Of a stretch of 64,000 bases of DNA, positions 1-31,634 are shown in pieces. Numbering within the stretch: the first letter of the stretch is position 1; the number at the start of each line of letters is the position of its first letter. The translations under genes were made by a program, and so were the position numbers. Below the pieces are notes generated by a model. That model was given only the letters and a program-made list of their open reading frames with translations. It was not told the origin of the DNA and ran no database searches. Origin of the DNA: Candidatus Margulisiibacteriota bacterium (GTDB taxonomy: Bacteria; Margulisbacteria; Riflemargulisbacteria; GWF2-39-127). The stretch is taken from contig QKMY01000058.1 of assembly GCA_003242895.1 (NCBI GenBank), positions 12,739-76,738 of the forward strand, written 5' to 3'.

Positions 1-3000
1 CCGGCCTTATATAACTATAGGTACTTCCAGTCTGATTAAATATTTTGATAGCGGTGACTTCAATATTGACACTTGTGCTGCGAAAATAGGATATACTTCT
101 GGTTACGGCCATATCATTAATGTTTCCAGCAGAATCCTTGACCCAGAGGTACACTGTTTTGATCCCAAAATCAGTATTCCTAAAAGTATATTCATAAGGT
201 TTTTCGTTACGCCAGTAATTGCTTGTAGGTGAAGGTCTTGTAGGTTGGACTTCACTTAGTATCCAGCTTACAACATCGGCATCACTATTTATGATAACGC
301 GAGGAAGCAGGTCATGGGTATAGTTAGTATCCCCCGTATCATAATCGAAGATAACAAAGGAAGGAGTACTTGCTACAGTATCGAGAACAAACTGCTTGTC
401 TCCTACCAGGGTATTCTGCACATTAGATGCATTATCTGTTACACAAAGATAAAAACTAGCCACCCCTTGAGGATCATTCTGGAAAACATTAAAGGTTGCA
501 GTATAAATATTGGGACTCACTCCGTTAAGTAAAAAGTTTAACGTGCTGCCATCAGCATAAACCAATTTAAGTTCAGGAGTTGCAGGCGTATCCTCTTGGA
601 TTGATAGCGTTAAGCTCACCGCTCCAATTGAAACAAAATCTCTTTTTGTCATATTTATCTGAGAAACAGGTTTAATGGTATCCAAAATTATGTTTTGAGA
701 TACTATGGTTTTATTAATATTCCTCGCGGAATCCTGTATCCATAAATATACTTTTCGATGCCCTTCCGGCCCAGCGTTTAATGTGTACAAGTTAGGCTTA
801 CTTGATTGCCAGCCTGCGGCGTTCCATTCAGGCTTAACTGATTGAGTCTCATTTACCATCCATTTAACCGCGGTATTGTCATTTCCAACATCGACGGCAA
901 TGGAGTACTCATTTGTATATATCTTATCTCCACTCGTTCTATCGGTTATATTCATTGTAGGATCTGCCAGAGTGATCAAAACATTAAAAGTAACGATACC
1001 GCCAAAAATCGACGTAACATTACCAGCATAATCCGTAACTCTGATATTTATTGTACATATTCCTTCCGGATAACCATCACTAATTATAATATCGCCAGCC
1101 CAATAGTTATTTATTGATCTTGACATTAGGATGGAATGAGTCGAACTGTCGCTCATTGAAAAATAAGCTTGTGGCGGGTTAATCGTATGTTCACTAACAT
1201 TTAAAGTAAGCGTATAGCTGCCAATTGCCAAATTAGGAGAATTTTTGATTGATTCCACGGTAAAATCAGCAGGAATTTTATCAATAGTATAAGGTTTGAC
1301 GAACGCAAGGCTTCTATTACCTGCGTTGTCAGTAACAGTAACATCCAGAGAAGCGCTGCTATCAAATCCCAGTGAATCGGAAATATACAAAGACCCAGTC
1401 CAGACATTAAGGCCAATGCAACTCATAATCACAGGAGCATCAATGTCAGAATGGAAAATAACTGACGGGGTAGCGCTCACAGCTTCCGAGACATTAAGGG
1501 TAATATTTAAAGTTGTATTGTTTAAATAACAATCCGGAATTGAATGAACACTAAATTCCGGAAGAAGCGTATCAACCTGAAATACAATGTCGCCACTAAG
1601 TTTATTAGATCTATTTCCAGAATAATCCACTAACTGAACATTAAATAAAGCTGCTCCATTAGCAAAATCCTCAGTAACATTAATCGTTCCGGTATAAGTC
1701 AGGGCACTTACTTGATTAAGAGTTACATTACGGGCTACCTCGCCATACCCATATAAAGTATAGTTCAAAGACACTCCAACTAAAGTTGCTTCACTGACAT
1801 TCAACGTAATATTAAGGATTCCAGCCTTAACATTAGGATATGTAGAGATTAGTATTGTTGCGGTCGGTTCATCATAATCGAGATAAATGCTCCGGCTGCC
1901 TGTTGAAGAAATATTACCGGCACGGTCCTGTATCCACAATTTGATATTTTTCGTGCTGATAACCATGTCGCTGAAAGTAAAGGTTGTCGGTTGTTGAGTA
2001 AGCCAGCCAACAGCGTCAAAGTCCGGGGTTACATTTGTTTGATCAGACAAATACCACATGTATACGCTACTATCAATGTTAACGCTAACGCCAATAGTAC
2101 GCTGATTGGTATAAGATTGAATAAGCGTAATCGGATCATAGGCGGTAAAACCCGGGGCCGAGGGCCTGGTCTTATCAATAACAAAAGTCTGCATTCCGCT
2201 AATTATCTTGTTTTGAACGTTGCTCGCATTGTCAGTGACGCTTAAACTAAAAGTTGCAACACCTTCGGGTGCCTCAGCATTAACGTTGATAGTGCCGACC
2301 CATAAATATCGAGAACTATCCATAGGAACAATATCGATTGCCAAGGCTTCTTGCCCTGCATATTGAACTTTGAAATCCGGCGTATTATTAAGTGCTAATA
2401 TTTCCTGGGTTATATTTAGAGTTATTTTGTAGTCGCCTTCTTTTATATATGGCCTGTACCCAAATTTTACTTCGGTCTGCGGAGGGGTATCATCATAAAA
2501 AATGTTAGCGCTCACTACATTTTTGTTTATATTTTTATAGGCATCCTGGACCCATAAATATAATTTTTTATTCTCATTCACTACATTCTTTAAAGTAAAA
2601 TTACTTGGTTTATCAGCGTTCCATCCCGGAGAGTTCAACGTCGGTTGAGTGCTTTGCGTATAACTGACCATATACTTGACCGCATCTTTATCGTTGCCAA
2701 TCTGCAAGCCGACAACCAAGTCGTTTACGTAGAGATTACTATCGGTATCAGTATCAATAATATTAAACGTCGGATCCGGGATCAGCGTATCAATACTAAA
2801 CGTAACGGTACCAAATAAAGAAGTTGACAGGTTACCTGCTCTATCAATAGTCTGCCCGCTTATTGTAGCCGTATCATTTACGTCAAAAGGCCTGATCTCT
2901 ACCTGGCCAATCCAGGTATGGTTTGATGATACACTATACAGTATATCGATTGAGCGTGTTAGCGCATTAGGGCTGCCGGAAGCTGGAGTCATAGTAATAA

Positions 3001-6000
3001 AATAACTCGGAGCAACCAGAATAGGTTCATTATAATTAAAGGTTACGGTAGAATACCCAATTCCTAAAGTCTTGCCTATCCTGATATTTACAGTTGGCTC
3101 CATGGTGTCCAGGGTAATCGTTCTGGTAATCAGCTTTGTATTGATATTAGCCTCAAAGGGATCGCTACTATCTTTTACCCAAAAGGCCAAGGTTTTTGGT
3201 CCGTCACCCGAGCTCAAGGTATAAGAATCAGTATACTCAGCCTTTGGCCTCCAAGCAGTAAAAGATCTCTCAGGACGAGTATAGTACGTCGCATTTTCTG
3301 TAATAATATAAAAATCAGCAAAATCATCACTGATAATATTCAAGCTGACTGTCAGTTCATTTGTAAACACCGGGGAACCGTTATTTGTATCAGTAATATT
3401 GAACGACGGATTCGGAACGACCGAAATATCGTAGGTAGTAGAAATATCGACCCTATTGCCAGCTTTATCGTATGTATTGAAAGATAACGTCATTTGTCCG
3501 CTTGGAGTATCACTATCGATATTGATGGTTGTCCTAAAAGTATTGTAAAAATTATTGCTATCAGGTGATCCGACAGGCGTAAAACTTAGTATCTTAGTTG
3601 CAGCATTAAAATAAGTAAATTTAGAATTCTTTATATTATTTGAAGGTATATACTCAGTAACAGATACGGTAAGAATATATTCTCCCGCATGAATTTTTTT
3701 AATGCCTTCGTTTAAGGATACTGTTACTTCAGGGGTTAGCAAGTCAACAAGGATAGACGCATTGATAGTACTTTCGTTATGGATATCGCTTGCGCCTTTT
3801 ACCCAAAGATTGTAAGTCACTACCGTCTCCTGATTGTCTGGCGCCAAGCTGGGGGAGATATAATAATTGTTTAAAGAAAACTCATTAGATTCACTGTTAT
3901 TCGGGCTAGTAATATCAACTAAAACGGGTTTAATCCCGATATTGCTCGTGATCATATAGTGAGTAACCAGTGCTACCTGATCGAATAGCATATTAATATA
4001 CCGTTCATTCGTATATTTCGAGCTGCTGAAATTATTAAGATTATCCCTGTCCAATATCTTTAAACTGACAAAACCTATTCCAGTAGCTACAACAAAAGTA
4101 TTAGGCCAATCGAGGTTCTCAAGATAATTACCCTGCGGCTTATCCGATACTCGCCTGTTGCCAACCAAATCCTCGGCGATGATCCTGAAAAACTGCCGTC
4201 CGTCCCCGAAACTACCATCAACAGAGAAACTGCCGGTTACAAGTTGAGAATTCACAACTGTATAGGTTAGTGTGTTTACCCGATTATCGGCCACACACAC
4301 AATATTAATAGATAGCGAGTCAGAAGCTATTGGTTCATTGAAATTAATGGTCACAGCAACGACCCCGATTCCATAAAATGTTGCGACACCAGGAGGCCGG
4401 GCCATTTCAACTGAAACAGTTGGAGCAATAGCGTCAAAATTAGTACTGACATACCGGGGCAAGCTAATGTTGCCGGCGTGATCTTTAACCCAAATATAAT
4501 AACCATACTGCCCTTGGGACTCACTATGAAAATACGTTTGAGGCCGTTCACTTAACCATGTGCCAGGAGGTATAGATGCAGGATCCGCAATTAGATTAGA
4601 GGAAATGTAATACCCTTTAATTGTAGATTCCGTAATAGCCATTGTTATATTAAAAGGGTTATCATTGGTTAGATTATAGCTGTTAGGTTTATCCATATCA
4701 TAAATAGCAGCGGTAGCTATTATGGGGATTACGGTATCAACATTTAATGTGGTTGTGCCATAAGAAAAGGTATCTGACGTAACGGTCCCGGCATTATCAG
4801 TAATCGTCATATGAAACGTTAAAAAACCATTCGGAAAGGCTTCAGTAACATTAAGTGTCGCAATGAATGCATTGCGGGTTATGTCAACAGGTGTTAGCTC
4901 GACTGAATAAGTCGTTCCACCCACTTCATAAGTCAAGTCCGGTGTTACTATAATGTTTTCTCCAATATCTAATGTTACCGAAACATCGCCTGTAGATATC
5001 CATCCGCTCTTTGTCAGCAGCAACCCGATATTAGGAACAGAAGGATCATAATAGATAGAAGTTGTAACGACGACATTATTAATATTTCCTGATTTATCCA
5101 TTAACCAACAATAGAGATACCTTGGACCTTCTTCAATGTTATCCGGGTCAAAATCGTAATTTGCGGGCTTAACTGCGGACCAAACTGCAGCTAATGGGTC
5201 TGGTTTCCCGAATTGTGCATTTTCAGTGATGATATAATAGTCGGTATCATTTGCTGCAAGTTCTACAATATTCGACAGCGAATTGGTGATCTGATTTGAC
5301 CGGTTAGCCTGACACTTGAGTTTTAAACTACCGGTAGGGATATCGATATCATATACTATAGAGTTAAAAGCGTACTGATTGGAAATATTCCCAGCCCTAT
5401 CTTTTACCCACAAATACAAATTTCTAGTTCCTTGCGTTTCATAAACAAATCTATATTGGACAGGTTCGGGCATCCAATCTTCAGCATTCTCTGATGGAAC
5501 TGCGGTCAACTCACGGATCACATACCGGAAATAATCAGGATCTTTGGATATCGTTACGTTTATTGTAGGCGTATTCGTATAACCACTACTATTATCAGGC
5601 CTGTTTAGACCACTGGTATTTACGCCCAAGGTAGGATCAGGTGGAAGTACTGTATCAAAATTAATAGTTGATATCAGTCCGGCAGGTATAACATTCGTAA
5701 TATTCAGCGCGTTGTCAGTAATAGTTAAATTAATCACAGCAGTGCCATTTTCATTTGGATCAACGGTAAAAAAACCCGCTAATGTCAGTCCGTCAAAATA
5801 ATCAAACGTAATAGTTCGCTTACTTCCCATAAAAGTTAAATAGAAATCGGGGGTCGCACTCACTGACTCAGAGATATTTACGGTTACACGGGAAGTCCCG
5901 GCTTTAATGTACCTGCCGCGCTCAAAATTGATGGAAGTAGCTTGAGGGAAAACATTATCATAATTAATGATAGCAATTGCCGGAACGGTATTAATATTGC

Positions 6001-9000
6001 CGGCAGCATCCTTGGTCCATAAGTAGGACGTCCGAGTTCCATTATTTGTATTTTTCAGTACAAAATAAACCGGAGGCGTACTCTGCCATAATGGGTCCGT
6101 CAAGCTTGGATTCGTTGACTGTGTCTCACTTATTAACCAGGCGGAAGACCTTTGATCGTAGTTATAACTTACGCCTACTACAAAATCATTGGTAAACTGA
6201 CTACTTTTCGAGTCAAGATCATACAGGATAAATGTAGGAGTAATTAAGGCAATATTAACGGTTAATTGATTACTAAAATAAATGCTCGAATATTTTAACC
6301 ATTGAACACTTGTACCGTAATTACGAGCATTATCTGTAACCTGAGCACTAAAATAAGCAGGCCCGTTGGCAGTTTGACTATTAATCGTGATTGAACCGTA
6401 AAACTGGGTTCCAGTTCGTCCTAAAATAGTTACCGGAACAGCAGCTTTCTGATATGGATTAAAATACAAATTAGGAGTGACTGATATTCCACTGGGGATA
6501 TTTAAAACATTAATAGTAACATTGAGGTTCTTTGTAGCAGTAATAGGATTTAACGGATTATGGTTAATATCGATTCCAATTTCCGGTATCAGGTTATCAT
6601 ACACAATGGTTGTAGTATTGGAGTTGATATTAAGCGCATAATCTTTGCCCCAGATATAGACATTATGAGTTCCCTGTACATTCGTCAGCTGATAGCTGGT
6701 TGGTTTGGCGCCCCAGTTACTATCTGCAGTATCAGGGACAAAAGCGCTATTTTCGGTTATTATCCACGAGTTGATATCACTGGAACCGCTTAAGGTCAGG
6801 TCAACTACCCGGGCATTTGTATAGAGTTCACTGCCAGTCAGCTTATCAAACAGTCTAAAGGTACTAATGTTCGGGGAAGTAGAATCAATAGAGATCTGCC
6901 CGCCAGCAAGAATCCCGGTCCCAACATTACTAGCATTGTCAGTTATCTTAATACCGAAGGTACCGAGGCCGTTCATTCCACTAGAATTGAACACCCAGGT
7001 ATATTTGGTACCGGATACCTTTGCCGCTGGGCCCAAAACAACACTTATTCCATTTACCGTTAAGCTCAGAAGTGGTGTTTCCTGTAGCGCTTCGCTTAGA
7101 TTAACGGTTATGGTTTTAACTCCGCCGTTTACATATGGACTGTTATCGATATCTACTGATACCGCGAAGGGAATGACATCATCATAATTAATCGTCGCAA
7201 CGGTTGAAACCGGACTTATTATTTCGTTCCGGTTCTTTACCCAGACGAAGAGGCTCTTCAACTCATTTACCCTATTTTTAAAAGTATAAGTTATTGGCCT
7301 ATCAATTCTCCAGTTTTGATCATTTGCTTCCGGAGCTACTCCAGTGCTGCTCTCACTTAATAACCAGCGTACCGCATCAGGATCGTTCCCGATATTCACA
7401 CCGATCATCTGATTATTAGTATACTGAGAGCTTGAGGTACCACGATCGAACATTGTAACGGTGGGTACTGCTACGTTTCTATTTATTCTTATTTCACCAC
7501 CGTTGATTGAGCTTATTCCGGTATTATAATAAATTTTATTTACCCGGGTTGTTGCATTACCTACAACATCGGTGACACTTACTTCAAAATTAGCAGTTCC
7601 AATAACGGTAAAAGGTACTATTCCCGAACAACTGTAACTGTTACCACCACTATTGATGATACTGCTTAAAGGCACCTCTACTTTATCCTGGCCATAGAGC
7701 TTAATCCATAAGCTAGCAGTACTTATTTGTGTTTCGTTATCCATACGTAAGGTAACGGTAACCGGGGTGCTGCTATAAACATTATGGATGTCTCCGATGC
7801 TTAATAACTGGATATCTACTGTGGGAGGAGTGTACATAGAATCATAAACAATACTGGTTGCCACATCAATCGGGCCACCCGCAAGATTATTGTTTGCGGT
7901 AGCTCGGGCAGATATATTTTGAGCAAGGTCTTTTACCCAGATGTACAATTTCTTTGCACCTTGGTCTCCGCTTAATGTGTATACCTCCGGCACTATGCCT
8001 GACCAATTACTATCATTAGCTTGAGGGGTAAAAGTATTATTCTCGGTTACCAGCCACCAGCCTATACCACTTCCACTATCACTGCTTTTTATCTCCAGAT
8101 CTACTCTATTTGAATTGGTATAGAGCGTGCTCCCAGTCAATCTATCCATAACCTTAAAACTTGTAACAACCGGGTTGGACTTATCAATAACGATACTTCC
8201 GCCACTCAGTATCTGCGAGCCAACATTATTCGCGTTATCAATTATCCTTACGCCAAATACTGCCGCACCTTCAGGTGTTGCGCCATCAATAGTCAGCGTA
8301 GCCGTATAGAGGCTGGGGCTTACTTTGGTCAGATTAAGGTTTGTTTTGACACCGCCATTAAAAGTGACCCACATTTCCGGGATCACCGCATATGGCAAAT
8401 AGGTTAGCTCTTCACTTAAATTAATGGTAACGGTTTTTGTTCCTGCACTAATATTAGGCATATTAGTAATATCTATAGAGACTACATATGGCAGCGTGGC
8501 GTCATAATTAATGGCAGCAGATGTACCGGCACTTATATTACCCATCGCATCCATGATCCAGGAATATATAGTCTTCAAGCCATTGGTATTATTTTTGAAA
8601 GTATACAAAGGCTGGTTCGAGTTTGACCACCGGCTATCCTGGGGAGAAACCGGAGGCGTATTTACTTCCGTCAGTAGCCAGTAGGAAGCTGCCCCTCCAC
8701 CCTGTAGAGTTACTGATACTACCAGATCATTAGTCCAAACCGTGCTGTAGGTGTCCTGATCGCTGAGGATCAACGTAGGTGTACCGATAATTCCCTGAGA
8801 AAAAATAAGTGACTGAATTAACTTCTCTTTTGTTGCAGTCCCGGCATTATTGGTTGCTGACAGATAGAATTCGATAGAATTAGGAGTTATGCCCGGATTA
8901 AATAAAAAATCGCCTTTATAAATATATTCCCCTGTATAATTTCCCAGACCATAATTTAAGCCTGATCCCGATAAAACAATTGGAGTCGAACTAGAATTAT

Positions 9001-12000
9001 CTTCATATCTATATACCATCTTTAATTCAGGTATAGACTGGAAATTGGGCAGTAACGAAATATCTTCTATCGACATATTTAAAGTAACATGTACCCAGGT
9101 CCCTCTGCTAATGATCTTCGGAGACAACTCAAGGGTACCATCCGGCGCACTCGCCATAATATATAGAGTTGTCGAACTTATGCTGACGTTACCTGCCCGA
9201 TCAGCTACTTCTAAATAAAGCGTCCGCATTCCTTCCGCTAATCCAGTAAACTGGAACTGCTGCCCGGTAAACCATTCAGACCAGGCGTTATTGTCAACCT
9301 TAGCCCGGAATGGACGATCTTTTAACTGACAATTATCTGCCGCCGGAGTCCAGCTTACAACAACATTATTCTTGTCATAGTAACCGGACTGCGGCCAATT
9401 AACGGCAAACCCGGTCGGACTGACAGTGTCCACATTTACTGTAACATCTTTTGTAGCCACATGGCCGGCAGCATCAGCCACTTTGATTTGGATAGATACG
9501 ATTCCCTGGACCGCCCCTACATTTATATCACCAATCGTATTCAGCGAAATACCCGATGACCAGGTTAGCCCATTATTCGTACTGAAAAAATAGGTTTTTG
9601 TATTAAGACTGACACTATCCCATGCCGGATCCCATTTTAAAGTAATCGAGCTATCATCATACCAGTTCGGTTCAGGATCAACTCCGTCTCCACCAGAATC
9701 AGAATCCTCACGAACTTCAACGAAATAAAAATTCGGAGTGGTAGTATCTACCCATTGCGAACCTACTGCTGAGGCTTTTATATTACCAGCCTTATCTGCT
9801 ACTGCCACATTAAAAGTAGCAGGTTTATAGATATTCGCCGAAGTATAGACATTCATCGTATTCGTATTATATGGAGTCCAGGATACTGTACCGATAGAAT
9901 TCTTTGCAAAATAAGGAGATGACGTGAACCCACCGACATCCTGCATTGCGGAAGTGGGAATTGTATATACGACAACAGTTTCTTTCCCATAATAGCCGAT
10001 GTCCGGCGTTACATCACCAATAAGGACCGGAGGACAAGGCAGAAAATTGACAGGAAGAAGCAGGTCCGGGCCTAGTATTACCGGGGCGACCATATCCACA
10101 TAAAACCCAGCCTGGGATTCAGTAACGTGTCCGGCCCTATCTCTTGCCTGAACATAGCCCAGGTTTTGATAACTGCCGTCATTGGAATAGGCGACAAAAT
10201 TAACGGCATTGCCATTATATGCAAATCCGCTCCAAGCATTCCATTCTGTATTAGCCGGAATATCGCTCGTTGCCACTCTGTAACGGTAAGCACCACCAGA
10301 TTGATATGGTCCGGAGGCATCTGACATTTCCCAGGAGAAATCTACAGTGTTGTCATCATAATAAGGAAATATGGGAGAGATTCCGTCACTATTGCTATCA
10401 CTATCAGGAGCAATCGCCATATTTAAGACAGGGGCCGTCAGATCGACAATTATGTTTTTTGAAAAAGTCGACGAATTGCCGACACTATCTCGAGCTATTA
10501 CGTATACGGTATGAACCCCTTCGCTTAAAGAACAGGTTAGACTTCCGTTCGCAGATTGTCCCCAAACAGGCGCAGCAGAATCAAGCTGATAAGCAACTGA
10601 GTTAATTCCTGAACCTGAATCACTAATACTCCAGCTAAAACCTACGGTTGTTTGATCAAAATACCCATTCTCCGGTTGATAAATGCTCGACCCGTCAGTA
10701 TCATCGGCAATAGTTATAGAACCGACAGGGCCAGTTGTGTCGATAAGGAATGGCCCTATATGGGTTGAATTTGTACTATAGTTAGCTACCTTGTCTTTTG
10801 ATCTGACATGAAACCATAGATTATTCCCATCAATCAATGAAGCCTGGTAATAAATATTAGCCGCAGCGACACCAGGCGCAGGCTCTGTATTGGAATTAGT
10901 ATCCCAAGAGTATACGTATCCATCTAATCCACTGTGTGCGTCACTTGCCTGGTTCCAATCGATTCTTACTACAGGGTTATTACTCCAGGTACCGGTAGTA
11001 TGTCCAGACGTACATCTAACGTTGGCTACATCAGTTGGGGGGGTTACATCCACCCAGAATGGACCACGATGAGCAGTAGAAGCAGAGATATTTATGGCTT
11101 GATCCTCCGGGCGAATATGCAGCCAATAATTCTGAGCAGATACTAGCGCAGAGGCAGGAAACGTATAATATGTCACGTTACCGAAACCATTATCGCTGCT
11201 CGTTACCAATGTACCGGAAACATTATCGAGCTTATATCTATAGGTATTAATGCCACTACCGCCTTGATCATACGATGTCGTCCAGTACGCACCGATATTT
11301 GGTAACCATGTACCAGTTGCAGGAGCGGTTATTGAAATGTCAGGAGGAATAGTCGTATCGATTTTTAGCAGAAAACTAGTAACATTCCCCCATGTTCCAG
11401 CATTGTTTTTTGCTCGTACATTGATTGAATAGGTACCTTCAGTTTTAGTTATTTGGAATGTTTGCAGAGGGTCACTGCCAGCAGGATCTACGATGATAAT
11501 CCCGTTTGTATCACCAGGGGTAGTGCCATCGGTTGTATAGCTATATCTATCAATTCCAGACACACTAAACGGGGCATTAATTGAAAAGGTAAAAACTCCG
11601 CTCTTATTCGTCCATCCGTTTACTCCATCCGGCATTGATGCGCCTCCGCTGTGGACACAGCTCAAAACCGGCCCTGCAGGAATAGCCGCATCAATCTTAA
11701 ATGGTCCTAAATTAGCTTCCACACCGACATTTCCGACATTATCCACAGCATGCACATGGAAATATGCGGTTGCTGAATTGGGCAGTACAATATTATTTAA
11801 TTGAGTTCCCACCGTATCATAGGTGCCATCAGCCAAAGTACCGGCAGATGCATTCGCGGCATACGAGTATCCGGCTACTCCTGATTGTGTGGCGTAGGTA
11901 ACATTATCATTTGAAGCATTCCACTGCATCGACAACATATTATTAGCTGTCCAGATCCCATTAGCCTGAACACCTGCTGTTCTTATTAATCCGGTAATAT

Positions 12001-13696
12001 TTGAAGGATTGGTCACATCTACCCAGAATGGCCCGCGATGAGCAGTATTGTAAGAAAGGTTGCTGGCGGAATCTTCAGGACGGATATGCAGGTAATAATC
12101 CTGTGCAGTAACGAGTGGAGAAGGAAGAAAAGTATAGCTAGTCACATTACCTACTCCGGAATCAGTGCTGTTTAACACTGTTGCTGAGGCCCTATCAAAT
12201 CTATATCGATAGGTGCTGATATTACTTCCGCCCATATCATTCGACATATTCCAGTATGCATTAACACTTTTCATCCAGGTGCTTGTATTCGGAGCTGTTA
12301 TCATGATATCCGGAGGGTTAGAAATATCTATATTTAATATAAAAGTCCTCGTTTGACTCCAGACGCCCGAAATACTTTTAACTTTTGCTTTAAAAGTATA
12401 AGTCCCTTGCGTTGAATAGGTACTTGGTAATGTGTATGAACTAGCAGCCTGGTCAATGATTGTGTCTGGTTCTGATCCATCCGTTGTATAGCTGATCCCT
12501 GCCATTCCGGAAATATTGCTCGGCGCTGTTATCGTAATCTGATGTCCAGTCAGGTTAGTCCAGACATTACTTACAGTACCCCTGCTGCTCACTATTGCCG
12601 GAGCGGCAGTGGAAGCATCTATCCAGACTTGGCTAAGGCTTGCCTCTGAACTCTCATTGCCTGCATTATCAACAGTCTTTACATATAACGTATATTTTCC
12701 ATCGATCGGACTGGCTTGAGAGGCACTTGTACCTGTAGTCGTACCTGAATAGGTCGTGTTAGTGCCAACCAACCTCCAACGATATTCTTTTAGTCCGCTC
12801 CCGCCAGAATCTGTAGCTGCAGTCCAGGAAAATGAAATCGGAGTTGCATTATTTGTATACCAGGTATTAAGTGTATGGGAAGTGCAGGAGAAACTTCCTG
12901 GTATCGAAGGGGCTATTGAGTCTATATAAAAAGGTCCCACATTAGTTGGAAGCGTTCCGGTATAGGTATGTCCCGCATCATCATTAACTACATTAAAATT
13001 AAGATATTGAGCGGTTGTGCTGGAAGTGTTGTAATCAAAAACATATGTTGGGCTATTTGAGGTATAATTTCCCCAATTCGTATATATATTTAATGGAGCG
13101 GCTCCACTGTCGTTTGTTTGCACTGTTACACGGACACTTTGATACCATGTTGGACCGCTGCCGGTTTTTACGGTTGATTGTGAAACAGAAGAAATAGGGT
13201 TCCAGTCAGCTTTGATTGTTATGGAATCAGAATATTGACTGCCATTAATGTAACAGGTTCCAGTATGAGTATTTGAACCCCCATTTGAGATTGCCCCATT
13301 CGGATTGTTAACATACAGAGAGTATGGGCTTGCATGACCACATCCTCCTGATGAGTAACTGATAGTGTAGCTTGAATATCCTGAGTTGGTAATATATCCG
13401 TTTGTCAAAGGAGCAGAACAGTAGAGACTGGCATAAGCTGAATAATAATCATGATAATCGTAATGTCCCGCAGAACAATATTGACAAGGATACGAGTAAT
13501 ATCCAGTACAATTCCCCATGCCGTCGTAGCCAGTGCAATAGCCGCAGGAGGTCCAAGCATACGAATCACACACCCACCAGTTATGGTATCCAGGCCAGGA
13601 AGCTGAAGATGCCCAGCTACCAGCGGCAGTGATTAGCAACATAATCACCCCGAAAAATAACGCATATAAAAATGTAATATTTTTAATCTTCCTCAA
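1..13696 (-). CDS. Giant secreted Ig-like repeat surface protein (partial, C-terminus lies beyond window start); >=4565 codons in window
   Basis: Manual minus-strand translation in the frame with codon first bases at coordinates = 1 mod 3 runs from TTG 13696 to position 2 without a stop. GAGGA 6 nt upstream; in-frame TGA at 13706-13708; alternative ATG at 13642. N-terminus MRKIKNITFLYALFFGVIMLLITAAGSWASSASW looks like a signal peptide. Recurrent motifs such as LYLWVKDRAGNIS and VTVTDNAGN. Not in the supplied ORF track, presumably because there is no stop inside the window. Confidence 0.85.
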   Translation of the reverse strand, partial: MRKIKNITFLYALFFGVIMLLITAAGSWASSASWPGYHNWWVCDSYAWTSCGYCTGYDGMGNCTGYYSYPCQYCSAGHYDYHDYYSAYASLYCSAPLTNGYITNSGYSSYTISYSSGGCGHASPYSLYVNNPNGAISNGGSNTHTGTCYINGSQYSDSITIKADWNPISSVSQSTVKTGSGPTWYQSVRVTVQTNDSGAAPLNIYTNWGNYTSNSPTYVFDYNTSSTTAQYLNFNVVNDDAGHTYTGTLPTNVGPFYIDSIAPSIPGSFSCTSHTLNTWYTNNATPISFSWTAATDSGGSGLKEYRWRLVGTNTTYSGTTTGTSASQASPIDGKYTLYVKTVDNAGNESSEASLSQVWIDASTAAPAIVSSRGTVSNVWTNLTGHQITITAPSNISGMAGISYTTDGSEPDTIIDQAASSYTLPSTYSTQGTYTFKAKVKSISGVWSQTRTFILNIDISNPPDIMITAPNTSTWMKSVNAYWNMSNDMGGSNISTYRYRFDRASATVLNSTDSGVGNVTSYTFLPSPLVTAQDYYLHIRPEDSASNLSYNTAHRGPFWVDVTNPSNITGLIRTAGVQANGIWTANNMLSMQWNASNDNVTYATQSGVAGYSYAANASAGTLADGTYDTVGTQLNNIVLPNSATAYFHVHAVDNVGNVGVEANLGPFKIDAAIPAGPVLSCVHSGGASMPDGVNGWTNKSGVFTFSINAPFSVSGIDRYSYTTDGTTPGDTNGIIIVDPAGSDPLQTFQITKTEGTYSINVRAKNNAGTWGNVTSFLLKIDTTIPPDISITAPATGTWLPNIGAYWTTSYDQGGSGINTYRYKLDNVSGTLVTSSDNGFGNVTYYTFPASALVSAQNYWLHIRPEDQAINISASTAHRGPFWVDVTPPTDVANVRCTSGHTTGTWSNNPVVRIDWNQASDAHSGLDGYVYSWDTNSNTEPAPGVAAANIYYQASLIDGNNLWFHVRSKDKVANYSTNSTHIGPFLIDTTGPVGSITIADDTDGSSIYQPENGYFDQTTVGFSWSISDSGSGINSVAYQLDSAAPVWGQSANGSLTCSLSEGVHTVYVIARDSVGNSSTFSKNIIVDLTAPVLNMAIAPDSDSNSDGISPIFPYYDDNTVDFSWEMSDASGPYQSGGAYRYRVATSDIPANTEWNAWSGFAYNGNAVNFVAYSNDGSYQNLGYVQARDRAGHVTESQAGFYVDMVAPVILGPDLLLPVNFLPCPPVLIGDVTPDIGYYGKETVVVYTIPTSAMQDVGGFTSSPYFAKNSIGTVSWTPYNTNTMNVYTSANIYKPATFNVAVADKAGNIKASAVGSQWVDTTTPNFYFVEVREDSDSGGDGVDPEPNWYDDSSITLKWDPAWDSVSLNTKTYFFSTNNGLTWSSGISLNTIGDINVGAVQGIVSIQIKVADAAGHVATKDVTVNVDTVSPTGFAVNWPQSGYYDKNNVVVSWTPAADNCQLKDRPFRAKVDNNAWSEWFTGQQFQFTGLAEGMRTLYLEVADRAGNVSISSTTLYIMASAPDGTLELSPKIISRGTWVHVTLNMSIEDISLLPNFQSIPELKMVYRYEDNSSSTPIVLSGSGLNYGLGNYTGEYIYKGDFLFNPGITPNSIEFYLSATNNAGTATKEKLIQSLIFSQGIIGTPTLILSDQDTYSTVWTNDLVVSVTLQGGGAASYWLLTEVNTPPVSPQDSRWSNSNQPLYTFKNNTNGLKTIYSWIMDAMGNISAGTSAAINYDATLPYVVSIDITNMPNISAGTKTVTINLSEELTYLPYAVIPEMWVTFNGGVKTNLNLTKVSPSLYTATLTIDGATPEGAAVFGVRIIDNANNVGSQILSGGSIVIDKSNPVVTSFKVMDRLTGSTLYTNSNRVDLEIKSSDSGSGIGWWLVTENNTFTPQANDSNWSGIVPEVYTLSGDQGAKKLYIWVKDLAQNISARATANNNLAGGPIDVATSIVYDSMYTPPTVDIQLLSIGDIHNVYSSTPVTVTLRMDNETQISTASLWIKLYGQDKVEVPLSSIINSGGNSYSCSGIVPFTVIGTANFEVSVTDVVGNATTRVNKIYYNTGISSINGGEIRINRNVAVPTVTMFDRGTSSSQYTNNQMIGVNIGNDPDAVRWLLSESSTGVAPEANDQNWRIDRPITYTFKNRVNELKSLFVWVKNRNEIISPVSTVATINYDDVIPFAVSVDIDNSPYVNGGVKTITVNLSEALQETPLLSLTVNGISVVLGPAAKVSGTKYTWVFNSSGMNGLGTFGIKITDNASNVGTGILAGGQISIDSTSPNISTFRLFDKLTGSELYTNARVVDLTLSGSSDINSWIITENSAFVPDTADSNWGAKPTSYQLTNVQGTHNVYIWGKDYALNINSNTTTIVYDNLIPEIGIDINHNPLNPITATKNLNVTINVLNIPSGISVTPNLYFNPYQKAAVPVTILGRTGTQFYGSITINSQTANGPAYFSAQVTDNARNYGTSVQWLKYSSIYFSNQLTVNIALITPTFILYDLDSKSSQFTNDFVVGVSYNYDQRSSAWLISETQSTNPSLTDPLWQSTPPVYFVLKNTNNGTRTSYLWTKDAAGNINTVPAIAIINYDNVFPQATSINFERGRYIKAGTSRVTVNISESVSATPDFYLTFMGSKRTITFDYFDGLTLAGFFTVDPNENGTAVINLTITDNALNITNVIPAGLISTINFDTVLPPDPTLGVNTSGLNRPDNSSGYTNTPTINVTISKDPDYFRYVIRELTAVPSENAEDWMPEPVQYRFVYETQGTRNLYLWVKDRAGNISNQYAFNSIVYDIDIPTGSLKLKCQANRSNQITNSLSNIVELAANDTDYYIITENAQFGKPDPLAAVWSAVKPANYDFDPDNIEEGPRYLYCWLMDKSGNINNVVVTTSIYYDPSVPNIGLLLTKSGWISTGDVSVTLDIGENIIVTPDLTYEVGGTTYSVELTPVDITRNAFIATLNVTEAFPNGFLTFHMTITDNAGTVTSDTFSYGTTTLNVDTVIPIIATAAIYDMDKPNSYNLTNDNPFNITMAITESTIKGYYISSNLIADPASIPPGTWLSERPQTYFHSESQGQYGYYIWVKDHAGNISLPRYVSTNFDAIAPTVSVEMARPPGVATFYGIGVVAVTINFNEPIASDSLSINIVCVADNRVNTLTYTVVNSQLVTGSFSVDGSFGDGRQFFRIIAEDLVGNRRVSDKPQGNYLENLDWPNTFVVATGIGFVSLKILDRDNLNNFSSSKYTNERYINMLFDQVALVTHYMITSNIGIKPVLVDITSPNNSESNEFSLNNYYISPSLAPDNQETVVTYNLWVKGASDIHNESTINASILVDLLTPEVTVSLNEGIKKIHAGEYILTVSVTEYIPSNNIKNSKFTYFNAATKILSFTPVGSPDSNNFYNTFRTTINIDSDTPSGQMTLSFNTYDKAGNRVDISTTYDISVVPNPSFNITDTNNGSPVFTNELTVSLNIISDDFADFYIITENATYYTRPERSFTAWRPKAEYTDSYTLSSGDGPKTLAFWVKDSSDPFEANINTKLITRTITLDTMEPTVNIRIGKTLGIGYSTVTFNYNEPILVAPSYFITMTPASGSPNALTRSIDILYSVSSNHTWIGQVEIRPFDVNDTATISGQTIDRAGNLSTSLFGTVTFSIDTLIPDPTFNIIDTDTDSNLYVNDLVVGLQIGNDKDAVKYMVSYTQSTQPTLNSPGWNADKPSNFTLKNVVNENKKLYLWVQDAYKNINKNVVSANIFYDDTPPQTEVKFGYRPYIKEGDYKITLNITQEILALNNTPDFKVQYAGQEALAIDIVPMDSSRYLWVGTINVNAEAPEGVATFSLSVTDNASNVQNKIISGMQTFVIDKTRPSAPGFTAYDPITLIQSYTNQRTIGVSVNIDSSVYMWYLSDQTNVTPDFDAVGWLTQQPTTFTFSDMVISTKNIKLWIQDRAGNISSTGSRSIYLDYDEPTATILISTYPNVKAGILNITLNVSEATLVGVSLNYTLYGYGEVARNVTLNQVSALTYTGTINVTEDFANGAALFNVQLVDYSGNRSNKLSGDIVFQVDTLLPEFSVHSIPDCYLNNTTLNITLNVSEAVSATPSVIFHSDIDAPVIMSCIGLNVWTGSLYISDSLGFDSSASLDVTVTDNAGNRSLAFVKPYTIDKIPADFTVESIKNSPNLAIGSYTLTLNVSEHTINPPQAYFSMSDSSTHSILMSRSINNYWAGDIIISDGYPEGICTINIRVTDYAGNVTSIFGGIVTFNVLITLADPTMNITDRTSGDKIYTNEYSIAVDVGNDNTAVKWMVNETQSVKPEWNAAGWQSSKPNLYTLNAGPEGHRKVYLWIQDSARNINKTIVSQNIILDTIKPVSQINMTKRDFVSIGAVSLTLSIQEDTPATPELKLVYADGSTLNFLLNGVSPNIYTATFNVFQNDPQGVASFYLCVTDNASNVQNTLVGDKQFVLDTVASTPSFVIFDYDTGDTNYTHDLLPRVIINSDADVVSWILSEVQPTRPSPTSNYWRNEKPYEYTFRNTDFGIKTVYLWVKDSAGNINDMAVTRSISYFRSTSVNIEVTAIKIFNQTGSTYSYIRP
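100..7960 (-). repeat. Tandem coding repeat array inside the giant gene: ~13 diverged copies of a ~200-220 aa two-domain module (period ~600-680 nt)
   Basis: Motif [LF]W[VI][KQ]D-x-AGNI recurs at approx. 135, 740, 1925, 2555, 3180, 3805, 4485, 5095, 5405, 6020, 6640, 7240, 7930, interleaved with a second motif (V-T/D-D-N-A-x-N). Copies are conserved at protein level but diverged at DNA level. Confidence 0.7.
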
Positions 13697-13727
13697 TAGA
13701 TATCCTCAATTATTCTATACGTAATAC

Positions 13728-15068
13728 CTATTTTGCACATCTGAACCCTGTACAGCCACAAGGACTCGAAGGAGCTATTCCGGCCATAATGGAAAAAACC
13801 CCTGATTGTTCATTCATTTTGTGTTCTCCGCCTCTCAGCAAAGCGGCAGGGAAGCATTGTCCTTCCGCTTGATTAGAAGCTGATTTAACTTCACTAACAC
13901 TATCGTTACCATAGGAAACTCCCGTATTAGGAAAAAATCCGGGATCATACTGACCTTTACCGATTCTTATCATTTTCAGGGTTTCTACTATCAATTTCTC
14001 TATATCCTTAAATTTTGGATCAATTTCTAATGTAAATGCTTTCATATCAGGCTGAAATCTACTCGATATCTTTCTGTTTTCATCGAGGTAATAATTCTTC
14101 TTTAATTCTTCCCAGATTTCTTCAGATTTAAACGAGGTTTTTTTTTCAATCTCATCAAAGGCATTTTTTTGTACTGGCCCCTGATAAAACATGCCATTAC
14201 CCTGCATCCAGTCGCTTACCCATTCATTTACATTCCCCGCCATGCCAACACAGCCAAAGGTAGAAATTTCCTGAGCGGCTATAGTGTCCCAGGAGGCCGG
14301 AAGTTCCCCTCCCCGCCCTTTGCTTAACGCCGTGCCTGCTGCGCCGTCCTGCCATTCGCCGTTTGTCACCAGCCGCTTCCCTGCGTTAACTGCTGCCCTG
14401 CGAGCGACAAACCAGGTCATTCCGGTCGAACACTCAGCCCTTTGAGAAAAAGCCATCCAATATGGTGGCACATTCTGGCCATTACCCGCCAAAATCCCAA
14501 AATCATTATGATTATGATCATGTTGGCTGTCTTTTTTATTTTCGTTCCGCTGAATAAAATATGTCCCTTTTACGTCAGCACCTTTATAATCTGCACCCAC
14601 ATCAATTATCCGGCAGGAATACTTATCTATCCAAACGGTACCTACCTTCACCTGTATATCATCTTGCCCGCATCGGTATGCCGGCATATCCGGATTGTAT
14701 TTGTTATTAATATGAGTTCCTGGCGGCAACTGATCCAGTTTGCCATGAAAAAAACCGACATTATTTCCTGTTACTATCCAGGAAACAGGATCTCCAGGAT
14801 CAATTGTGCCCCGGCTGGCATCTATGACTTTATTATATTTCCAGGCCCTTTCTTCATCATCCCACCCTACCCATAGAGCATTAAACATTAGATAACTCTG
14901 TCCATTATTGCTAAAATCCGGCCATTGATATACCGGAACAGAGTTAGCATAATAGTTGGGTAACCGGTTATCAACCTGCTGAACCGCGGCTTCGCCGACA
15001 ACTGAAAATACCATTAAAAAAAAGCATAGTGAAAGTATAATTCTGATCTTGTGATAAAATTGCATCAT
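13728..15068 (-). CDS. FGE-sulfatase/SUMF1-family domain protein (formylglycine-generating-enzyme-like; GldK/GldJ-like possibility), secreted
   Basis: 446 aa with N-terminal signal peptide. Motifs AGKRLVTNGEWQDGAAGT and MAGNVNEWVSDW resemble the FGE signatures RLPTEAEW..ARGG and GNVWEW. ~140-aa C-terminal extension ending PCGCTGFRCAK. 31 bp upstream of the giant gene, same strand. Confidence 0.65.
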   Translation of the reverse strand: MMQFYHKIRIILSLCFFLMVFSVVGEAAVQQVDNRLPNYYANSVPVYQWPDFSNNGQSYLMFNALWVGWDDEERAWKYNKVIDASRGTIDPGDPVSWIVTGNNVGFFHGKLDQLPPGTHINNKYNPDMPAYRCGQDDIQVKVGTVWIDKYSCRIIDVGADYKGADVKGTYFIQRNENKKDSQHDHNHNDFGILAGNGQNVPPYWMAFSQRAECSTGMTWFVARRAAVNAGKRLVTNGEWQDGAAGTALSKGRGGELPASWDTIAAQEISTFGCVGMAGNVNEWVSDWMQGNGMFYQGPVQKNAFDEIEKKTSFKSEEIWEELKKNYYLDENRKISSRFQPDMKAFTLEIDPKFKDIEKLIVETLKMIRIGKGQYDPGFFPNTGVSYGNDSVSEVKSASNQAEGQCFPAALLRGGEHKMNEQSGVFSIMAGIAPSSPCGCTGFRCAK

Positions 15069-15076
15069 CGTCTCCC

Positions 15077-15790
15077 TTATAATAAAAATAAAATACCTAG
15101 CGCTAAAAACGTAAAAGCCATAACCAACTTAAACCAACCTATTTTTTCTGTCAAAAATCCGGAAAGCTTCCGGGAAGAAAGCCCGCTGTAAGTTAATAAT
15201 CCGATTATGATTAAAGGAAAAACAAAAAATACGTTATAAACGAACAATAGCAATGTGCCCTTTATCGCAGAACCGGTTTTTATCATATACAGAATCGAAG
15301 GGAAATATATCTGTCCGGTACAGTTCAGCTCAAATATAGATACCAGGAAACCTAATACCAGTGAGGCAATCACGATATTTCCTGTCATGGTTTTCTCTCT
15401 GATTGCGTTTTTAATTCTTTTTTGTAAAAAGTCCGGTAACCGTAAGATGAACTTATTTTTTTTTGTAAATGCCAGATAAGCATCATAAAAAGAAAGGGCC
15501 GAACCAATGAATGCAAGACCTGCTATAACGCATTGAAAAAGCCTGGCAACAATAAAGTATGAACCGGTTTTATAAAGAAATTGAAATAAGCCAAACCCTA
15601 TCAAAAAATAGGTAACAAACACTGCTATCGTAAATAATGCAAAAGAAAGCATCATTTCCTGTTTTCTCTGTCGTACTGACAGGTACGAGAGCAAAAAAAT
15701 TACCGTACCAAATGCACACGGATTTATTCCGTCGATTAAACCTGCCATGCATATAGTAATAAAACTGAGATTAACCAAACTATTTAGCAT
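15077..15790 (-). CDS. CcdA/DsbD_2-family thiol:disulfide transmembrane electron-transfer protein
   Basis: 237 aa, polytopic and hydrophobic. N-terminal motif GLIDGINPCAF and a second membrane-embedded Cys (FELNCTGQIY), as in the cytochrome c biogenesis transmembrane (DsbD_2) family. Confidence 0.55.
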   Translation of the reverse strand: MLNSLVNLSFITICMAGLIDGINPCAFGTVIFLLSYLSVRQRKQEMMLSFALFTIAVFVTYFLIGFGLFQFLYKTGSYFIVARLFQCVIAGLAFIGSALSFYDAYLAFTKKNKFILRLPDFLQKRIKNAIREKTMTGNIVIASLVLGFLVSIFELNCTGQIYFPSILYMIKTGSAIKGTLLLFVYNVFFVFPLIIIGLLTYSGLSSRKLSGFLTEKIGWFKLVMAFTFLALGILFLL

Positions 15791-16880
15791 CCTCTCTCAT
15801 AATATGATCAAGCTGTCTCTCTATCTCAGTTTTACCTGCCAGTAACAGTCCATTAAAATATAGTGCCGGCAGATCAAGTTTATTTCCCATTATCTTCATA
15901 TAAGTCTTATAATTATCAGGCTCTTCCAGAGGATAAAAAACAACCTCATAATGTTTATTATGAGCAGCTAATACCTGCGGGATCTTCTTTGTTCTTAGTT
16001 TGTGACAATAGGCACAATTACTGTTAGAAAATACATAAATAATATCCCTGGATAACCTTGTATCTTTTTGCTTTTCCTGACCTCTTAACTCTTTATAATA
16101 TTCGAGCATCAGACCCTTAAGCTTTTTTGAGGCCATAAAACTGTCGGCAGGTATCATTTTCTGGGAGATGAGATTAACGGTCCCCTTCTCTATGCTAAAA
16201 ACCATCTTTCCAAGGAATTGAGCATCTTTTCCTGCTGATACAAAATGTGTCTGCCCTACTGTAAAAGAATTCTGATACTCACTTTCACTGGAGACAATAA
16301 TATCAATCCAAGGGAATTTCTTCGCGATTTCAATATTCTCTTTTTTAGAAAGCTGGGATAATAAAACTGTCAGGTCAGCTGATTTTTTTTGTACACTAAA
16401 GTGCCCTGACAAATACGTCTCGAATGCAGATTGCTTATCAGCAGCAACCCCGAGAATGATTATAGTGACTCCGGATTTCTTAACCGAAATGTATTTCTGG
16501 GTTTGTGCACCTGATTGAACAGAGGATACAAGAGGAAGTTCACGTACCTGGTTATCTGCCGGCACATCCAGGTTAATTGCATCATATTTAAATAAGTTCA
16601 TAGCGGCTGCAACATACTTGTTTTTTGCACTATTATCAGGTAAAAAAGTTCCTCCGTTATCAACTATTACTAAATTAGGATTGCGTTCCCTTTCTTTTTC
16701 AACAAGAGGCAATAGCAACTCTAGTCCGCCATTCGCTTCTGTTGAACAATTACACGATTCTAATTTCCCGTTGATATTAGAGGTAAACAGCAGGGTAATA
16801 GTTTCTGCATTCAAAAAATTACAACTGCACATCGATAATACAGTAATAAGAAAAAAATAATTAATAATAATTCTACCCAT
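15780..16880 (-). CDS. Exported thioredoxin/glutaredoxin-like CxxC protein with N-terminal degenerate metallophosphoesterase-like domain
   Basis: 366 aa with signal peptide. C-terminal thioredoxin-fold-like segment with CAYC (YVFSNSNCAYCHKLRTKKIP...). N-terminal part weakly resembles a calcineurin-like phosphoesterase (ITLLFTSNINGKL, LVIVDNGGTF) but lacks the usual His/Asp ligands. Overlaps the CcdA-like gene by 11 bp. Confidence 0.5.
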   Translation of the reverse strand: MGRIIINYFFLITVLSMCSCNFLNAETITLLFTSNINGKLESCNCSTEANGGLELLLPLVEKERERNPNLVIVDNGGTFLPDNSAKNKYVAAAMNLFKYDAINLDVPADNQVRELPLVSSVQSGAQTQKYISVKKSGVTIIILGVAADKQSAFETYLSGHFSVQKKSADLTVLLSQLSKKENIEIAKKFPWIDIIVSSESEYQNSFTVGQTHFVSAGKDAQFLGKMVFSIEKGTVNLISQKMIPADSFMASKKLKGLMLEYYKELRGQEKQKDTRLSRDIIYVFSNSNCAYCHKLRTKKIPQVLAAHNKHYEVVFYPLEEPDNYKTYMKIMGNKLDLPALYFNGLLLAGKTEIERQLDHIMREDAK

Positions 16881-30959: not shown

Positions 30960-31634
30960 TTATTGTGTTTGTAAACTATATTGTAAAACAGCTGTCCAGG
31001 TAGCCGGAGCTGTTGTTGCTGTAAAACCGAGTCGATACCAAGCTTTTATTGTGGTTTCTGTTAGCTGTTGTTCACCAGATGCAATTTGACGTGCAGAATC
31101 AGCAAGTGTAGCTGAACCTTTAGTCCACGTTGTCCCATCTGCCTTCCAGCATGGATCTTGTTGTGCTGCAACGCCAACTTTGTACCATGGCCAGTATTGA
31201 CTATCCTTTACATTTAACCATGCAGCCGCAGCGGTGTTTGTTGGTAGAGTTGCGCTAACGGTTACACCAAGAGGTTGCTGTGATCCGGAATAATCAACTC
31301 CCATATTTCCAAGTGAGTAATCAACCAGACCATCGATTTTAACGTTTTCATCAGCATTTGTTGTAGCCGCAACGTGACTCGCATTCATAACGAATAGCTG
31401 CCATGATGATTTGTTTGTCGAATAAGCAATATTGGTTGCTGTTGTAACAATTATTGTAGTCGCATTGACTGTAAGGGCATTTAATGTAGGCGCCTGTCCC
31501 CCTGAAACAGTATTTACTTTCAATATTGTGGTATCGGCAACTGTTGCCTGAATACCAATCAAACCATAGTTTGCAGCGAAGGCTGCTGAACTCATAAGCA
31601 TTAAAGCTAAAACCATAAATAGTATTTTTTTCAT
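30960..31634 (-). CDS. Secreted Thr/Ala-rich protein (candidate fibre/pilin-like subunit) with mature N-terminus ANYGLIGIQATV
   Basis: 224 aa; ATG with AAAGGTGGG RBS; signal peptide MKKILFMVLALMLMSSAAFA, then the same motif as the mature N-terminus of the 1268-aa protein. Confidence 0.5.
   Translation of the reverse strand: MKKILFMVLALMLMSSAAFAANYGLIGIQATVADTTILKVNTVSGGQAPTLNALTVNATTIIVTTATNIAYSTNKSSWQLFVMNASHVAATTNADENVKIDGLVDYSLGNMGVDYSGSQQPLGVTVSATLPTNTAAAAWLNVKDSQYWPWYKVGVAAQQDPCWKADGTTWTKGSATLADSARQIASGEQQLTETTIKAWYRLGFTATTAPATWTAVLQYSLQTQ

Follow-up and report, generated by a model that had tools for sequence, protein, structure and literature searches.

SprB of Flavobacterium johnsoniae is a giant repetitive type IX secretion system (T9SS) adhesin that carries a type-B C-terminal domain (CTD) and is co-encoded with a partner of the PorP/SprF type. 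The pairing of a surface protein CTD with an outer-membrane barrel partner as the concept behind SprB/SprF-type anchorage was reportedly put forward, going by the title of the work, by Gorasia et al. in 2022. In Porphyromonas gingivalis, the CTDs of PorU and PorZ are retained and tether the two proteins to PorV and PorQ at the surface. PorV acts as carrier of type-A CTDs: it binds them within the SprA translocon and then departs together with them (PMC10994853). Margulisbacteria are among the phyla enriched in proteins of more than 5,000 residues, which are uncharacterised and without COG assignment (PMC11573180; bioRxiv 10.1101/2023.11.21.568195). The present analysis concerns one such protein, encoded on the minus strand (1..13696) of a 64,000-nucleotide stretch of a Candidatus Margulisiibacteriota genome (contig QKMY01000058.1), hereafter the window. 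From its domains and gene context, the giant is considered to be probably a fibrillar adhesin-like surface protein that is sorted or anchored via its C-terminal tail and a PorV-like barrel.

A sequence-only reading of the window had described its minus strand as open from a TTG at 13696 to the window edge, and this was confirmed. Translation of positions 2-13696 yielded 4,565 codons with 0 stops, against 304 and 497 stops in the two other minus frames. With a random-codon stop probability of 0.062 from the base composition of the strand, the probability of meeting no stop in 4,565 codons is about 1e-127 (log10 P = -127). Six bases upstream of the TTG start lies the ribosome-binding site GAGGA (13703-13707, minus strand), which overlaps the in-frame upstream stop TGA (13706-13708, minus strand); both were read from the sequence and agree with the earlier description. 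The gene had also been called invisible in the track of open reading frames (ORFs). This was so for the ORF list used here, which omits ORFs running off the sequence end and therefore lacks the giant gene, and which contains no ORF of at least 120 residues anywhere in 1-13696. It was not so in public annotations, where gene callers report a product of 5,692 residues (TTG start) or 5,674 residues (Met19 start). The TTG start was preferred because the Met19 start leaves the hydrophobic region of the signal peptide too short. The window part of the product is rich in Thr, Asn, Ser, Tyr and Asp, as had been noted (T 10.6, S 10.3, N 8.9, D 6.2 and Y 5.4%).

The window holds the 5' 80% of the gene (the first 4,565 of 5,692 codons). 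The C terminus had been expected beyond the window edge, and the 1,127 further residues were recovered through the full-length product P0023 and the JGI contig L012, on which the complete gene spans 17,079 nt (5,692 codons plus TAG); the remaining codons and the TAG stop thus lie to the left of the window. Similarity searches with 1,000-residue pieces gave only 2 and 3 weak matches and missed the protein itself, which was recovered as P0023 by an exhaustive profile search. A search for a contig extension, by a peptide scan of GTDB representatives and an exact 39-mer scan of JGI contigs, gave no match.

Ten window proteins were found to be letter-identical to Candidatus Margulisbacteria (Margulisiibacteriota) records in metagenome-assembled genomes (MAGs) from the Rifle aquifer (GWD2_39_127, GWE2_39_32, GWF2_38_17, DKM50_ and UBA re-assemblies). 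The gene belongs to a population of Candidatus Margulisbacteria in the groundwater and sediment at Rifle. The neighbouring 237-residue gene was located on 23 contigs (NCBI, ENA, JGI), and each of these 23 also carries the giant gene. For 10 listed loci of this set the length of the giant gene is recorded; it was called as 5,692 or 5,674 residues in eight and split in two, both times at NN scaffold gaps. Eight loci from different samples and assemblers aligned colinearly with the window; across 20.7 kb they differ from it by 14-73 substitutions and show no indels. In the first 2,873 codons, the nine colinear sequences contain 45 synonymous and 24 non-synonymous variable codons, and no stop was created; over all 4,565 codons, the window and L012 differ by 17 synonymous and 7 non-synonymous codon changes. 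Since synonymous exceed non-synonymous changes, purifying selection acts on the frame of the gene. The density of single-nucleotide polymorphisms (SNPs) is higher in the giant gene than in the neighbouring genes. The earlier concern that the repeat array might be collapsed was not borne out: the modules are only 21-38% identical, TRF detected no tandem repeats in the gene DNA, and the longest direct DNA repeats are of 35-44 nt at 66-76% identity. The lack of repeats at the DNA level therefore argues that the gene is no repeat-collapse artefact, and neither an in-frame stop nor a frameshift nor a repeat artefact was found when the public assemblies were compared.

The N terminus carries a plausible signal peptide of Sec type (residues 1 to ~30; 13607..13696, minus strand), in agreement with the earlier reading. 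It was assigned by inspection of the translation only, from an RKIK n-region, a hydrophobic core of ~20 residues and the sequence SWA-SS. The following N-terminal head (residues 31-264; 12905..13606, minus strand) lies outside the hidden Markov models (HMMs) of the modules and gave no Pfam match at E<=0.5; its residues 43-148 are rich in Cys and Tyr and hold 9 of the 31 cysteines of the protein. Residues 265-1636 (8789..12904, minus strand) form ~13 heterogeneous Ig/FN3-like modules, recognised by a Pfam Y_Y_Y match above the gathering score (residues 298-354, 51.3 bits), weak Big_13 matches and the module HMMs, and show 29% identity to the repeats of P0001. From residue 1637 to the window edge at residue 4565 (2..8788, minus strand), two types of Ig-like module alternate, as deduced from iterated HMMs, alignment, AlphaFold2 and Foldseek.

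Modules of type A follow the pattern YTN...W..(S/T)E...P...W...YLWVKDxAGNI and those of type B the pattern VTLN(I/L)SE...TP...F.V.VTDNA.N, with 14 of each within the window. A regular expression for the strand motif of type h-x-h-x-D-x-AGN matched 37 times, mostly at a spacing of ~100-120 residues. Iterated HMMs seeded on two C-terminal modules found 40 modules over the whole protein, of which 38 lie inside the window, and left four inter-module gaps of 113-142 residues, which are module-sized; the total is estimated at about 45 strongly diverged Ig-like modules. Twelve A-B pairs aligned at 21-38% identity, and AlphaFold2, run on this alignment, gave two beta-sandwiches with a mean pLDDT of 91.5. 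Foldseek matched the model to tandem-Ig structures (LILR, KIR and titin), to PorU and to the large adhesion protein stalk 6xi3. The predicted folds support the earlier statement that Ig-like modules with D-x-AGN signatures dominate the product; the modules end in this motif. The families it had suggested fared less well: Big_5/SbsA_Ig and cadherin had no Pfam match even at E<=1 (520-residue pieces), Big_13 was marginal (29.5 bits versus a gathering score of 27, last strand only), and fn3 exceeded its Pfam cut-off only in the part left of the window (27.2 bits versus 25). Searched against 1.84 billion representatives, the A-B pair profile matched 10,447 proteins at E<=1e-3, of which 682 reached E<=1e-30; many of the matched proteins have 3,000-6,900 residues, and the top match was P0023, the giant itself. 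Being unmodelled by Pfam, the A and B types are candidates for a new domain family. Carriers of the modules include a Bacteroidota-like chitinase giant (P0036) and high-GC giants (P0031, P0058 and P0060).

Past the window edge, P0023 has a further A-B pair, which is followed by a Gly/Glu/Ser linker, by three cohesin/CBM-like domains of ~155 residues, by FN3 domains and by a terminal domain of ~100 residues that starts with NYPNPF. The four closest relatives (P0024, P0026, P0028 and P0030) share this C-terminal architecture; two of them, P0024 (6,876 residues) and P0030, run into contig starts, so that they are longer still and their upstream context is lost. The last ~100 residues of the giant matched the NCBIfam PorU model in its C-terminal part (E=6.6e-9), and the CTD also matches PorZ and FlgD Ig domains. 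Ten tails were aligned, comprising those of the giant, its four relatives, three other giants, P0001 and a 1,268-residue protein of the window, and all ten match Por_Secre_tail (best E=3.4e-10). Compared with the PDB, the ten-tail profile found the P. gingivalis PorU CTD (6za2, residues 1058-1154 of 1156) at E=1e-7, the PorZ CTD (5m11) at E=1e-3, aligned at the very C terminus, and 8glj_D, a T9SS CTD caught in the translocon, at E=0.02; genuine FlgD Ig domains were matched at E=4e-6. By these profile matches, the C-terminal domain is assigned as a homolog of T9SS type-A CTDs, closest to those of PorU and PorZ. Pfam scans and precomputed Pfam matches revealed no SLH domain in the 5,692 residues, and since no SLH domain, LPXTG motif or transmembrane segment is on record in the giant, the T9SS-like CTD is the only candidate anchor. 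The product of a 411-residue gene downstream of P0024 is not PorV-like.

The giant gene is the last of six co-oriented genes that run from 20827 to the window edge with gaps of -11 to +31 nt. The operon call is based on spacing and orientation; scans for promoters and terminators gave counts at chance level and were uninformative. Signal peptides are present on five of the six products, the exception being a six-helix CcdA/DsbD membrane protein. The first gene (19586..20827, minus strand) encodes a 413-residue outer-membrane beta-barrel assigned to the PorV/PorQ family by NCBIfam PorV_fam and a PDB profile. The window has two PorV-family genes. The second (23580..25910, minus strand) encodes a 776-residue protein in which a PorV-family barrel (residues 25-301) is fused to SLH and FlgD_ig domains; it scores 121.1 bits against PorV_fam and passes the cut-off of 90, and its other domains are supported by Pfam (SLH at 82 bits, FlgD_ig) and by PDB SLH matches. 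Single-sequence PDB searches with the PorV-like proteins gave no match to the barrel, but a profile built from both barrels and an Elusimicrobia homolog matched F. johnsoniae PorV (6h3i_F) at E=3.7e-18 over both barrel halves, and this was its sole significant PDB match. The 776-residue gene is preceded, 296 nt upstream, by the gene of the 1,268-residue protein included in the tail alignment (26206..30012, minus strand), a secreted second cargo whose similar C-terminal domain was recognised from weak Por_Secre_tail and FlgD_ig matches and from the CTD alignment.

The PorV-like profile was scanned over species-representative genomes, and tails were sought with the HMMs built here. This gave 63 PorV-like loci, of which the closest are in Endomicrobia and Elusimicrobia; the others are mostly of the FCB group (Fibrobacterota, Chlorobiota and Bacteroidota) and include KSB1, Calditrichia, Gemmatimonadota, Bacteroidota, Ignavibacteria, Marinimicrobia and Zixibacteria, among others. 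A tail-bearing ORF was present in the flank of 47 of the 63 loci, and in 30 of the 63 it stood directly upstream on the same strand, its end falling -150 to +400 nt from the PorV-like start. The tail-bearing ORFs range from 155 to more than 3,300 residues, with several truncated at the locus edge. As judged by these profile matches, the order of a tail-bearing cargo followed by a PorV-like barrel recurs as a gene pair in other phyla. The window has one canonical copy (the 1,268-residue and then the 776-residue gene) and one at the level of the operon (the 413-residue gene through the giant). At the Elusimicrobia locus L013, the order is an FGE-like gene, a gene for an 862-residue FN3 protein with a similar tail, and a PorV-like gene; the FGE-like protein encoded there, in an Elusimicrobia MAG, is the best full-length homolog of the FGE-like protein of the giant's operon (38% identity over 96%). 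Four loci (L030, L032, L033 and L039) have two PorV-like ORFs each, in tandem in three of the four.

In the mechanism we infer from these data, the giant would be exported by Sec, and its Cys-rich head may be oxidatively folded or proof-read with the help of the co-encoded CcdA and CxxC thioredoxin-like pair. The co-encoded PorV-like barrel would recognise the C-terminal domain and would carry the protein to the cell surface, hold it there, or both; the surface location itself is thus a prediction. The display would place the C terminus proximal and the head distal, and at ~4 nm per Ig domain the fibre would reach ~150-200 nm and could serve as an adhesin or a spacer. The lectin-fold FGE-like protein is a putative binding partner, and the SLH-bearing partners may tie outer-membrane components to the wall. 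A wider proposal is made tentatively, as possible but doubtful: that Margulisbacteria and Elusimicrobia, which both lie outside the FCB group, use a type-IX-like sorting in which each large cargo has a PorU/PorZ-like CTD and its own co-encoded PorV-like barrel, some of them SLH-tethered. This might do without SprA and PorKLMN, as a minimal module for surface display made of a CTD and a dedicated PorV, which could be an ancestral or simplified T9SS.

Several results weigh against sorting or anchoring of the giant through its tail and the barrel, or against calling it an adhesin. None of SprA/Sov, PorK/L/M/N (GldK/L/M/N), PorU and PorZ was found in the 64-kb window or in 35 kb of L012 (~95 kb), and the host belongs to a phylum outside the FCB group. 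The CTD of the giant falls below the curated cut-offs of Por_Secre_tail TIGR04183 (E=9e-4, 19.1 bits versus 23), Pfam PF18962 (15.4 bits versus 27) and FlgD_ig (24 versus 27), its Pfam match to CHU_C is also sub-threshold, and the 413-residue barrel scores 80.7 bits against PorV_fam (NF033709), below the cut-off of 90. In the operon, the PorV-like gene comes first and the cargo last, unlike the canonical adjacent order. The FGE-like protein is unlike a recognisable GldK/PorK, the head is without detectable relatives, and the label of adhesin would apply by analogy only. By curated score and phylum, the giant fails strict membership of the T9SS type-A cargos; it plausibly works like one.

The same sub-threshold scores, together with the match of the CTD profile to genuine FlgD Ig domains at 4e-6, a weak FadL/Toluene_X match of the 413-residue protein, the lack of core T9SS genes in the window or L012, and reviews that place T9SS only in Bacteroidota/FCB (PMC10202324, PMC5445135, PMC12398890), would also be accounted for if the CTD were a mere terminal FlgD-type Ig domain, the PorV-like neighbours unrelated FadL-like channels, and the route of export or anchoring a different one. 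This was deemed unlikely because the CTD has its best PDB and NCBIfam matches in those of PorU and PorZ, with an end-to-end alignment at the extreme C terminus, the barrel profile matched nothing but PorV significantly in the PDB, and a tail ORF directly upstream of a PorV-like gene in 30 of the 63 loci, with two pairs in the window, is hard to explain without a functional link. If the export route is accepted, the protein could still be a structural envelope component, such as a sheath, an S-layer-like coat or a spacer, and no adhesin. We regard this as quite improbable. A linear string of ~45 Ig-like modules that has a distinct head and three cohesin/CBM-like domains, and is encoded along with a lectin-fold protein, is a better fit to fibrillar adhesins than to an S-layer lattice, there is no SLH domain within the 5,692 residues, and the SNP density exceeds that of the neighbouring genes. 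In its favour, the envelope is SLH-based, as indicated by the SLH porin at 49452-50798 and the SLH domains of the 776-residue and 886-residue proteins, the gene is under purifying selection and present in all 23 contigs, and S-layer subunits are among the T9SS cargos (PMC8869499).

Two further explanations carry very little weight. The size of the protein, its Ig-like stalk and the Foldseek match to the large-adhesion-protein stalk 6xi3 resemble a giant adhesin of the RTX/Bap/LapA kind exported by a type I secretion system (T1SS). This is effectively refuted by the N-terminal Sec signal peptide and by a C terminus that is a T9SS-type beta-sandwich rather than a T1SS signal; domain scans found no RTX, Calx-beta or VCBS repeats, and no ABC, membrane fusion protein (MFP) or TolC genes lie nearby. 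That the open frame stems from misassembly or from a pseudogene in decay has a negligible probability: the gene is split in two public assemblies, but both splits are NN scaffold gaps, the eight other assemblies are colinear without indels or stops, synonymous exceed non-synonymous changes, and there are no DNA repeats to collapse. Sorting or anchoring of an adhesin-like fibre through its tail and a PorV-like barrel is retained as the probable interpretation.

The remaining operon genes lie between the 413-residue barrel and the giant. The second (16901..19561, minus strand) encodes a secreted 886-residue protein with SLH, TPR and a FliG_M/FliG_C-like helical domain, assigned from Pfam and a signal peptide; the SLH match is weak, and the score of 48.9 bits against NCBIfam fliG is below the cut-off. 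The FliG-like domain is predicted to lie outside the cytoplasm, which was unexpected. The third (15780..16880, minus strand) encodes a secreted 366-residue protein with an UshA-like N-terminal and a thioredoxin-like C-terminal domain, based on weak NCBIfam/Pfam matches, and has the CxxC motif C289-A-Y-C292. Its gene overlaps by 11 nt that of a 237-residue CcdA/DsbD-type six-helix thiol-disulfide electron transporter (15077..15790, minus strand; Pfam DsbD_TM, 29.1 bits) with six hydrophobic segments, Cys25 and Cys157. A fusion of UshA-like and CAYC thioredoxin-like domains is unusual for a periplasmic reductant pathway.

The fifth gene (13728..15068, minus strand), called one codon shorter (445 residues) by public callers, encodes a secreted 446-residue protein of the FGE-sulfatase/C-type-lectin fold (Pfam FGE-sulfatase, 27.7 bits; signal peptide). 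Its 70 homologs, the nearest of them generic proteins of the FGE fold, include a target of a diversity-generating retroelement (DGR) and a phage gene: one stands beside bAvd and a reverse transcriptase (RVT_1), and one on a phage-like contig. These contexts suggest a binding fold of the lectin kind and not an enzyme. The gene has the highest density of strain variation among the genes compared (20 of 446 codons). An active DGR target was nevertheless rejected, as no template repeat or reverse transcriptase was found in the window or L012 and the variation is spread gene-wide. An assignment to GldK/PorK/GldJ was likewise rejected since the protein matched no NCBIfam family at E<=0.1 and gave no PDB sequence match.

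Outside the operon, the 776-residue protein has its barrel before its SLH domains, the reverse of the usual SLH-then-barrel porins, and would bring its own wall tether; an SLH porin with the usual order is encoded at 49452-50798. The 1,268-residue protein shares the mature N terminus AANYGLI[A/G]IQA... with a 224-residue protein (30960-31634, minus strand). A 272-residue secreted protein, its family unassigned, is encoded between these two genes, and the three may form a small surface-structure cluster.

The sequence-only reading had held that the giant gene defines an accessory locus, and this was not substantiated. Housekeeping genes (purD, rdgB, tRNA-Pro and the dcw cluster) flank the gene together with a defence island outside the window, all 23 contigs carry it, and its GC content at third codon positions (GC3) of 0.36 matches that of the genome. 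The overall GC of the gene is 0.39-0.45 versus a window average of ~0.36; since GC3 matches the genome, the excess was ascribed to amino-acid composition rather than foreign origin. To the left of the window, L012 (27181-34867) has a Methyltransf_21 gene downstream of the giant, followed on the opposite strand by a helicase, SLATT_6, SMODS (resembling a cyclic-oligonucleotide-based antiphage signalling system) and a Roc-COR GTPase. This group looks like a defence island that abuts the giant gene.

The analysis gives a first architecture for one uncharacterised Margulisbacteria giant and defines two Ig-like module types, outside Pfam, which more than 10,000 proteins carry. It also provides genomic evidence that the logic of a tail plus a PorV barrel reaches phyla next to Cyanobacteria, and Elusimicrobia, as a recurrent two-gene cassette. 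If true, the proposed sorting bears on how diderms with SLH-tethered outer membranes display large proteins, and on the origin and minimal requirements of T9SS. No paper linking Margulisbacteria with type IX secretion was found in the literature search; an apparent match for "PorV2" proved to be a superscript artefact, and none of the terms sought for secretion, outer membrane, S-layer, flagella or pili occurs in the main Riflemargulisbacteria paper.

Compared with the T9SS type-A cargos and PorV of F. johnsoniae and P. gingivalis, the giant has in common the Sec signal, a C-terminal beta-sandwich of ~90-100 residues and the (Y)PNPF...G.Y... pattern, and its operon encodes a PorV-family barrel of the 14-strand type, PorV being the protein that binds type-A CTDs (PMC10994853). 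Beyond the host phylum and the missing SprA, PorKLMN and PorU in the window and L012, it differs in that its CTD is a longer, FlgD_ig-like variant below the curated cut-off, that one of the PorV-like barrels is fused to SLH domains, and that the PorV-like genes look like paralogs linked to their cargos, and not like a single general carrier. PorU and PorZ of the P. gingivalis attachment complex are the best matches of the tail (6za2, E=1e-7; 5m11, E=1e-3), and their anchoring through a retained CTD is the mode proposed, as a prediction, for the giant; both are machinery components of ~760-1,160 residues, in contrast to a fibre of 5,692 residues.

With SprB/SprF, the giant shares the plan of a repetitive protein of several thousand residues with a C-terminal domain and a dedicated, adjacently encoded barrel, but its CTD is type-A-like, its partner is of the PorV type, and gliding machinery is not evident. 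The T1SS adhesins with Ig repeats (MpIBP/MpAFP, LapA and Bap) likewise have a long tandem-Ig stalk that projects a ligand-binding region (PMC4083281). Their repeats are near-identical and fold in a Ca2+-dependent manner, and they carry RTX/T1SS C-terminal signals and N-terminal retention, whereas the repeats of the giant are 21-38% identical, its export is predicted to be Sec-dependent, and its tail is T9SS-like. The giant is, finally, one of the "huge proteins" of Margulisbacteria, for which the surveys give no architecture, sorting signal or operon context. A giant gene as such is to be expected in this phylum, and public databases already list this one as a hypothetical protein; what is new here is the architecture of its product and a T9SS-like sorting context in a non-FCB, SLH-tethered diderm.

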